From assembly GCF_003991155.1 (NCBI RefSeq), contig NZ_CP031293.1: a stretch of 64,000 nt of DNA. One strand, given 5' to 3'. Below are positions 31,217 to 31,809 of this stretch, in pieces. Source of the stretch: Escherichia coli. GTDB taxonomy: Bacteria; Pseudomonadota; Gammaproteobacteria; Enterobacterales; Enterobacteriaceae. Made by a program: the position numbers and the translations under genes. Below the pieces are notes generated by a model. That model was not told the DNA's origin and searched no databases. It worked only from the letters and a program-made list of their open reading frames with translations. How positions within the stretch are numbered: the stretch's first letter is position 1; every line of letters starts with the position of its first letter.

Positions 31217-31248
31217 GAAAATGGCGCTTTAAGAAGCGCCATTTTTTT
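31217..31248. terminator. bidirectional intrinsic terminator between convergent fdnI and higA-like gene
   Basis: Hairpin AATGGCGCTT-TAAGA-AGCGCCATT followed by TTTTTTT on the plus strand and preceded by AAAA. Confidence 0.6.
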
Positions 31249-31531
31249 ATTGCGTAACCAGACGGCGCAGTCGCGACACATCCACCGTTTTTTCAGCCTC
31301 TGCCAGGCTCCAGGCGTTTTGCAGATTCAGCCACATTTGCGGCGAACTGCCGATCACCACGGAAAGTTTAATTGCCATTTCTGGCGTCAAAGCTGCTTTT
31401 CCGGTCAGCAATCGGCTTGCCGTTGAGGGCGCAATTTCCATAGCTCTGGCAAACTCGCGCAGGCTGACATTAAGTTCGTCCAGTGATTCCTGAATAATGT
31501 CCCCCGGGCGGGGATGATTGGCCATTTTCAT
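31247..31531 (-). CDS. HigA-like antitoxin (XRE-family HTH)
   Basis: Start at ATG 31529-31531 ([23 protein letters not shown]..., 94 aa), overlapping the upstream toxin stop as ATGA. Confidence 0.65.
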
Positions 31532-31809
31532 CAGTGATAGTCCTCGTAATCCAGTATGTATGCATCGCCATTGACGAACTCGAACGTTATCCGCCAGTTG
31601 CCCGAGACAGATATCGCCCAAATTCCATCGCGATCGCCGCTTAACGGGTGTAATCGGTAACCGGGCATATCGATATCTGCAAGACAGCTTGCTGCATCAA
31701 TCACAGCGAGTCGGTGGCGTAATCGTTTGACTTGCGTCGGTATAACGCCGGAGGTTTTGCCGAGAAGAAACAAGTCACGCAATCCCTTGTGTCTGAAATT
31801 CATTATCAT
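31531..31809 (-). CDS. HigB-like toxin (RelE/ParE superfamily)
   Basis: 92 aa [14 protein letters not shown]...[17 protein letters not shown]...; toxin-first order and 1-nt stop/start overlap with the antitoxin. Confidence 0.65.

Follow-up and report, generated by a model that had tools for sequence, protein, structure and literature searches.

Between fdnI and adhP of the Escherichia coli sequence analysed here (64,000 nucleotides in all, referred to below as the window) lies what is very probably a chromosomal higB-higA (higB-yddM) type II toxin-antitoxin operon, belonging to the same family as Rts1 hig and present in part of E. coli. The pair is already known: it is annotated in RefSeq, the structure of the antitoxin is in the PDB, and both the locus and the antitoxin-only state of K-12 and HS have been reported (PMC7232551). 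The modest additions from this analysis are an operator model, outgroup evidence on ancestry and a quantification of toxin loss, including the frameshift found in ST131. The pair is ordinary except that in most E. coli the toxin has been lost or broken and the antitoxin kept.

The 92 AA toxin ORF, higB, lies on the minus strand at 31809..31531 (C-terminal YEDYH; RefSeq WP_000605676.1) and is followed on the same strand by the 94 AA antitoxin ORF, higA or yddM, at 31531..31247 (RefSeq WP_000781370.1), thus bearing out the two ORFs and the toxin-first order proposed in a first-pass annotation of this DNA. The pair also converges, as proposed there, on the fdnGHI operon, whose fdnI gene occupies 30543..31196 on the plus strand; adhP (33005..31995, minus strand) lies upstream. 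The junction had been described as an ATGA stop/start overlap, which is incorrect. It reads cacTGATGaaa, with the TGA at 31533-31531 and the ATG at 31531-29 having a single base in common, and there is no 4-base overlap. Two Shine-Dalgarno elements are seen in the minus-strand sequence: the AGGA of higB at 31817..31820, 7 nt before the ATG at 31809 and present as aGGa in the orthologues, and the GAGGA of higA at 31541..31545, 9 nt before the ATG at 31531. The latter falls within the 3' end of higB, implying that translation of the two genes is coupled via TGATG. At this locus the window is identical (100%) to E. coli 2016C-3878, where RefSeq lists a "type II toxin-antitoxin system RelE/ParE family toxin" and "yddM: HigA family addiction module antitoxin"; PGAP annotates both genes of the pair, and in NZ_CP029747.1 higB is again called a RelE/ParE family toxin. 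Judged by Pfam, NCBIfam and dN/dS, both ORFs are to be taken as real genes, not chance ORFs. Two other frames were considered here and set aside. The longest mechanical antitoxin ORF (31247-31621, minus strand) would encode 124 AA from a TTG at 31621, inside higB, but that start is without homology support, and the 94 AA form is the one found in PDB 2ICP and in the RefSeq annotation. In CFT073 a spurious antisense annotation, c1908, lies opposite yddM (PMC3141248); homology gives no support for it as a gene.

The toxin matches the Pfam family PF05015.19, HigB-like_toxin, with an E value of 1.5e-17 between AA 4 and 92 (model positions 2-91 of 91), and this is the sole Pfam family reported for it even at E <= 10. 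In a PDB search, AA 1-92 align without gaps to the HigB of Proteus vulgaris plasmid Rts1 (4MCT, 4MCX, 4PX8, 4YPB; E 8e-32 to 4e-30), and identity to HigB of Rts1-type plasmids is 56-58%. The residues H54, N71, R73, D90, Y91 and H92 are identical in the window toxin and 4MCT_B; substitution of His54, Asp90, Tyr91 or His92 each abolishes the toxicity of P. vulgaris HigB (PMC5027501). The family match, the gapless homologue and the four retained essential residues together uphold the earlier reading of a RelE/ParE-fold, HigB-like toxin. P. vulgaris HigB Arg69 is replaced by Ser69 in the window toxin, and HigA Thr34 by Ala34, neither residue having been shown to be essential. No NCBIfam family matched the toxin (0 families), and RefSeq gives it the generic name "RelE/ParE family toxin" because no NCBIfam model covers it; this absence says nothing against its identity as HigB. 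No experiments on the toxin itself were found in the searchable literature, and the higBA deletion made by Norton and Mulvey in CFT073 was kept out of the evidence, it being ambiguous which higBA locus was involved.

YddM scores 93.7 bits against the NCBIfam model TIGR02607, antidote_HigA (residues 3-81), where the curated cut-off is 47.7, and carries an N-terminal XRE/Cro-type helix-turn-helix, HTH_3, at residues 14-65 (E 5e-9). Its 94 residues are all identical to those of the PDB entries 2ICP/2ICT ("antitoxin HigA"), which have been attributed to YddM/HigA of E. coli CFT073 (PMC3968373, PMC6987408). Its assignment as a HigA-like XRE-HTH antitoxin thus holds, and the profile searches for HigB/RelE and HigA families that had been suggested as a check gave matches to PF05015, TIGR02607 and HTH_3. 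YddM and P. vulgaris HigA align in the same numbering. Six residues of the latter contact DNA -- S23, T34, T37, S39, R40 and K45 (bioRxiv 10.1101/2021.03.04.434028) -- and all are kept in YddM but T34, which is Ala; Arg40 is the sole base-specific contact in the HigA-operator structures (bioRxiv 10.1101/2021.03.04.434028; PMC12266136). By analogy, YddM is presumed to be the autorepressor of higBA.

A search upstream of 31809 for operator palindromes, also suggested at the first pass, turned up two that are conserved phylogenetically. Both are 19 bp long and lie on the minus strand, 29 bp apart from start to start: putative operator O1 at 31850..31868 (TGTTGC-gctgcac-GGAACA), with a left half that includes the likely -35 element, and putative operator O2 at 31821..31839 (TGTTCC-ttttgag-GGAACA), whose first T doubles as the final base of the likely -10. 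The pattern TGTTSC-N7-GGAACA, with 1 mismatch allowed, has four matches in the 64-kb window, namely O1 and O2 read on both strands (0.86 expected), and no other sites. The operators were compared among 22 distinct sequences, those of the window and of 21 orthologous loci from at least 9 genera; the four half-sites and both N7 lengths are kept in 21/21 of these loci, the sequences of the spacers vary, and the gap between O1 and O2 is 9 or 10 bp. The promoter polymorphisms found within E. coli likewise sit in the O1 and O2 spacers, not in the half-sites. The likely -35, TTGCGC (31866..31861, minus strand), forms part of the left half of O1, and 16 bp downstream of it is the likely -10, GATAGT (31839..31844, minus strand). 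Their hexamers are weak, with 3/6 and 4/6 matches to consensus, but gaTAnT abuts GTTCC on its 5' side in all orthologues, as TATACT in Chimaeribacter, TATGAT in Erwinia and GATAAT in C. gillenii. The transcription start is predicted to be near 31832. These two conserved 19-bp palindromes, which overlap the putative -35 and -10, are strong sequence evidence for what may be autoregulation.

A consensus scan proposed only one promoter, TTGAGG-18-GATAAT, which can be discounted because it lies across the start codon. The best mechanical inverted repeat, GGAACActa-N4-TAtTGTTCC, amounts to GGAACA-N10-TGTTCC and is made up of the inner half-sites of O1 and O2; as an operator it appears less likely than the N7 palindromes, because its spacing varies (9 or 10 bp), the N7 lengths are invariant, and the Rts1-type sites are also N7. 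Between O1 and the adhP terminator, at 31895-31935 on the minus strand, there is a pyrimidine-rich tract, ctcttcttcttttcctcccccatctttcccctc, and the corresponding region is CT-rich in the Citrobacter orthologues too.

The fdnI-higA spacer is 50 bp long (31197-31246) and contains one hairpin, between runs of A7 and T4. Folded directly, this hairpin (31217..31246) comes out on the plus strand at -17.6 kcal/mol (z -3.1), followed by a U7 tail, and on the minus strand at -16.2 kcal/mol (z -2.5), followed by a U4 tail. Because it folds well on both strands and has U-tracts on both, the suggestion of a bidirectional intrinsic terminator shared by fdnGHI (plus) and higBA (minus) is correct. The hairpin was missed by a consensus terminator scan, and the terminator-like Rfam matches at the locus are weak and all below threshold. 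On the other side, the adhP terminator hairpin (31958..31985, minus strand) is an inverted repeat, GCTGCGAC...GTCGCAGC then CTGTTTTG, folding at -17 kcal/mol; it is kept in toxin-less alleles and sets the limit of the higBA unit on the upstream side. In other E. coli the fdnI-yddM spacer contains a unit of about 178 bp, present once or twice in tandem, with REP/BIME-like palindromes and, at its end, a copy of the terminator hairpin (L002 1548-1953; L004 and L005 1548-1774; L053 348-1108), and in some toxin-less strains an IS200C lies at this spacer. In the same operon, fdnG (26606-29653) has an in-frame TGA at codon 196 (about 27191-27193; ...NQARV*HGPT...), the known selenocysteine codon of formate dehydrogenase-N, and the mechanical ORF list thus gives only an 803 AA fragment of it.

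The state of the pair across E. coli was surveyed in 5,426 complete RefSeq genomes. The yddM gene is found in 5,412 of them (99.7%), while higB DNA is found in 1,330 (24.5%) and is absent from about 75%, having been deleted in about 4,080 of the 5,412 genomes that bear yddM. One exact allele, with a 1-bp deletion in codon 33 (the G in CACC-G-ACTC), accounts for 545 of the 5,426 genomes, so that at least 41% of the higB carriers (at least 545/1,330) are frameshifted and a potentially intact higB is left, by derivation, in at most about 785 (14.5%). The E. coli O25b:H4-ST131 copy (L007 701-978), annotated as a frameshifted pseudogene, is one of those 545. Another allele, in bat isolate A3, has a 9-bp in-frame deletion. 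Since about 75% of the genomes are without higB and at least 41% of its carriers are frameshifted, its selective value in E. coli is evidently low. Disruption of the toxin frame in most related strains had been named at the first pass as an argument against a toxin-antitoxin pair, and such disruption is literally what is found, at least 85% of complete E. coli genomes having either no higB or a frameshifted one; it implies that the toxin is dispensable and often lost, not that it was misidentified, and the identity of the intact copy as HigB stands.

A K-12-like strain, O157:H7 and others share the common toxin-less allele, in which the 146 bp separating adhP from yddM still include the terminator of adhP, the -10 region and both operators (O2 as TGTTCC-N7-GGAACg), and the yddM ATG follows after about 24 nt. 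(The K-12-like allele was placed by custom global alignment, MAFFT having misaligned it.) In these strains yddM has thus been left as an apparently autoregulated orphan antitoxin. Compared with the window (L002 2239-2383 against 31810-31994), each N7 spacer shows differences at 4 of its 7 bases, the half-sites are kept, and the 40-95 nt upstream cannot be aligned. The allele may represent either an old deletion or an import by recombination. Unusually deep divergence between toxin-plus and toxin-less yddM alleles was considered and rejected, as their dS of 0.06-0.14 is similar to that of fdnI and adhP. A mosaic spacer, also 146 bp, was seen in one genome, O157:H7 TR01 (L052 901-1047): after the adhP terminator it is of the window type, then comes a K-12-type O1 and directly after this the 3' end of higB, of which the last 47 nt are kept. 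It adds a third type of deletion of the toxin, though it may instead be a recombinant.

Differences among the intact E. coli higB alleles are almost all synonymous. The window protein, WP_000605676.1, and WP_000605675.1, from a strain derived from Nissle 1917 and from FDAARGOS_1292, differ in about 3% of nucleotides and, by reading of the alignment, in a single residue, S41C; the frameshifted ST131 copy also differs from the window allele in about 3% of nucleotides. In the type strain of E. albertii, NBRC 107761 (L011 2223-2782), on the other hand, the HigB and HigA proteins are both 100% identical to those of the window, which, set against E. coli alleles about 3% apart, may be a sign that the two species have shared alleles.

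A scan for relatives of YddM, with one genome per species, gave 41 loci. A higB-higA pair adjoining fdnI in convergent orientation is present in E. albertii, Escherichia sp. MOD1-EC7003, 12 Citrobacter, Pluralibacter, an Enterobacter sp. and "Enterobacteriaceae bacterium 89", and toxin-first HigB-HigA pairs are found in Cedecea, Buttiauxella, Chimaeribacter and Erwinia as well. Among the 12 Citrobacter with the fdnI-adjoining locus, higB is intact in 10; HigB there is 82-89% and HigA 87-95% identical to the window proteins. Pairwise Nei-Gojobori comparisons across Escherichia and Citrobacter put dN/dS at 0.07 (higB) and 0.04 (higA), with dS about 1. The higBA pair has been inherited vertically beside fdnI since ancient times, under purifying selection. 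This outgroup synteny and the strong purifying selection indicate that the toxin-bearing state is ancestral and that the pair is functional where it is intact. In Citrobacter sp. FP75, C. portucalensis and Xenorhabdus, higB has decayed and higA is intact; these decays outside E. coli are independent events.

By homology, the operon would work as follows. A single promoter, approximately TTGCGC-16-GATAGT, would give a bicistronic mRNA on which translation of higA is coupled to that of higB through TGATG. HigB would enter the ribosomal A site and cut mRNA at preferred, A-rich codons by means of His54, Asp90, Tyr91 and His92, bringing translation and growth to a stop, while a HigA dimer would hold and neutralise two HigB molecules. 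HigA2, with or without HigB, would bind O1, which covers the -35, and O2, which covers both the -10 and the transcription start, and so occlude RNA polymerase and repress its own operon; depletion of HigA would leave HigB free. In most E. coli the toxin was later deleted or frameshifted, leaving an apparently autoregulated orphan antitoxin.

Several other readings of the locus bear consideration. In PMC7232551 the toxin is labelled "ParE-2" and given the CDD superfamily label cl21503, "ParE_toxin superfamily"; these labels, the RefSeq name and the fold shared by RelE and ParE would fit a toxin that poisons gyrase, as ParE does, instead of cutting mRNA. That is scarcely credible, given that PF05016 (ParE_toxin) is missing from Pfam matches up to E <= 10, that the protein keeps the catalytic His/Asp/Tyr/His and has about 57% identity with a HigB for which both the cleavage chemistry and ribosome-bound structures have been worked out, and that it is paired with a HigA of the helix-turn-helix type and not with a ribbon-helix-helix ParD. 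It is also decidedly improbable that the intact frame encodes an attenuated or non-toxic HigB, a decaying remnant beside what acts solely as a YddM repressor gene. The prevalence of decay points that way, with about 4,080 of 5,412 yddM genomes deleted for higB and at least 545 more frameshifted, as do the independent losses in Citrobacter sp. FP75, C. portucalensis and Xenorhabdus and the existence of the 9-bp in-frame deletion. Retention of all four essential residues argues for an active toxin, as do the almost exclusively synonymous differences between intact E. coli alleles and a HigB that is unchanged in E. albertii, 82-89% identical in Citrobacter and under a dN/dS of 0.07. Abortive infection, in which HigB is freed when a phage shuts off host transcription, is an improbable main role. 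Phage defence is a general property reported for several type II toxin-antitoxin systems, but nothing specific to it was found at this locus: PADLOC has no match for the toxin and weak helix-turn-helix matches only for the antitoxin, and instead of a defence island or mobile element there is a fixed core-genome site between fdnI and adhP across genera.

A role for YddM/HigA independent of the toxin, kept under selection after the loss of higB, has been considered because some 85% of E. coli are without an intact higB and yet 99.7% keep yddM. Different strains often have exactly the same YddM protein (100% identity), and the promoter of the toxin-less allele still has both operator palindromes. 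Such a role is rather unlikely but deserves some weight; YddM might possibly be an anti-addiction factor against plasmid-borne HigB toxins of the Rts1/IncT type, or possibly a domesticated transcription factor with other targets. If this were true, the repeated decay of the toxin first, by several independent events in E. coli, Citrobacter and Xenorhabdus, would represent a general route from a toxin-antitoxin pair to a host regulator.

Under the preferred reading, a type II toxin-antitoxin operon, the locus should be annotated as a genuine Rts1-type HigBA, rather than a ParE system or an uncharacterised ORF pair, and the annotation gains coordinates for the likely operators, promoter and terminator. 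It offers a clean natural example of a module decaying toxin-first with its antitoxin and operators persisting throughout, and a convenient system for studying what an orphan antitoxin does, though it opens no new mechanism.

Among known systems, the K-12 HigB-HigA encoded by ygjN-ygjM resembles this pair in its name, its toxin-first order and its ribosome-dependent RNase toxin, but is an unrelated locus in the fadH-rlmG region; its antitoxin has a C-terminal helix-turn-helix (PMC6987408), and none of its chains appear among the PDB matches of the window pair at E <= 0.01. In the few strains compared in PMC7232551, K-12 and HS have a complete ygjNM and yddM only, and CFT073 and NRG857c the reverse. 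GraT-GraA of Pseudomonas putida (6F8S/6F8H) and P. aeruginosa HigBA belong to the same Pfam family, with toxin-first order and helix-turn-helix antitoxins, but are much more distant, giving weaker PDB matches (E 4e-7 for the toxin, 2e-11 for the antitoxin). Their regulation has been reported to be different as well, with GraA binding in a cooperative manner and GraT relieving repression (PMC12266136). The closest system is the same gene, at the same locus and position and with a 100% identical antitoxin: CFT073 HigA/YddM (2ICP, 2ICT), or TA20 of NRG857c and CFT073, which was listed as ParE-2/HigA-2 ("parE-2/higA-2") in AIEC NRG857c and UPEC CFT073, with K-12 and HS having the antitoxin only (PMC7232551).

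The HigB-HigA of P. vulgaris Rts1 (4MCT/4MCX, 4YPB, 6CHV, 6W6U) is like the window pair in its toxin-first order, its 92 AA toxin, which aligns gaplessly with the same essential residues, and the N-terminal helix-turn-helix of its antitoxin, with Arg40. Identity is about 57% for the toxin and roughly 40-45% for the antitoxin core; HigA has 104 AA in Rts1 and 94 in the window, and Rts1 is plasmid-borne, whereas the window locus is chromosomal and vertically inherited. According to PMC12266136, an operator fragment from an E. coli hig locus, which the text does not specify, was not bound by P. vulgaris HigB-HigA. Directly upstream of higB, the Rts1-type hig promoter of pNDM15-1091 (L006) has the palindromes TATTGC-N7-GTAATA and TATTAC-N7-GTAATA, 30 bp apart; the published contact numbering for Rts1 O1 and O2 (C-30, G-24, G-8, C-2) is only partly reconcilable with this plasmid sequence. 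The Rts1-type promoter, TTGCAC-17-TATAGT, overlies these palindromes in the same placement as the promoter inferred for the window, and while the half-sites differ (TATTAC in Rts1, TGTTCC in the window), the two sets of operators have a common skeleton, TnTTnC-N7-GnAAnA, repeated about 30 bp apart over the -35 and the -10.
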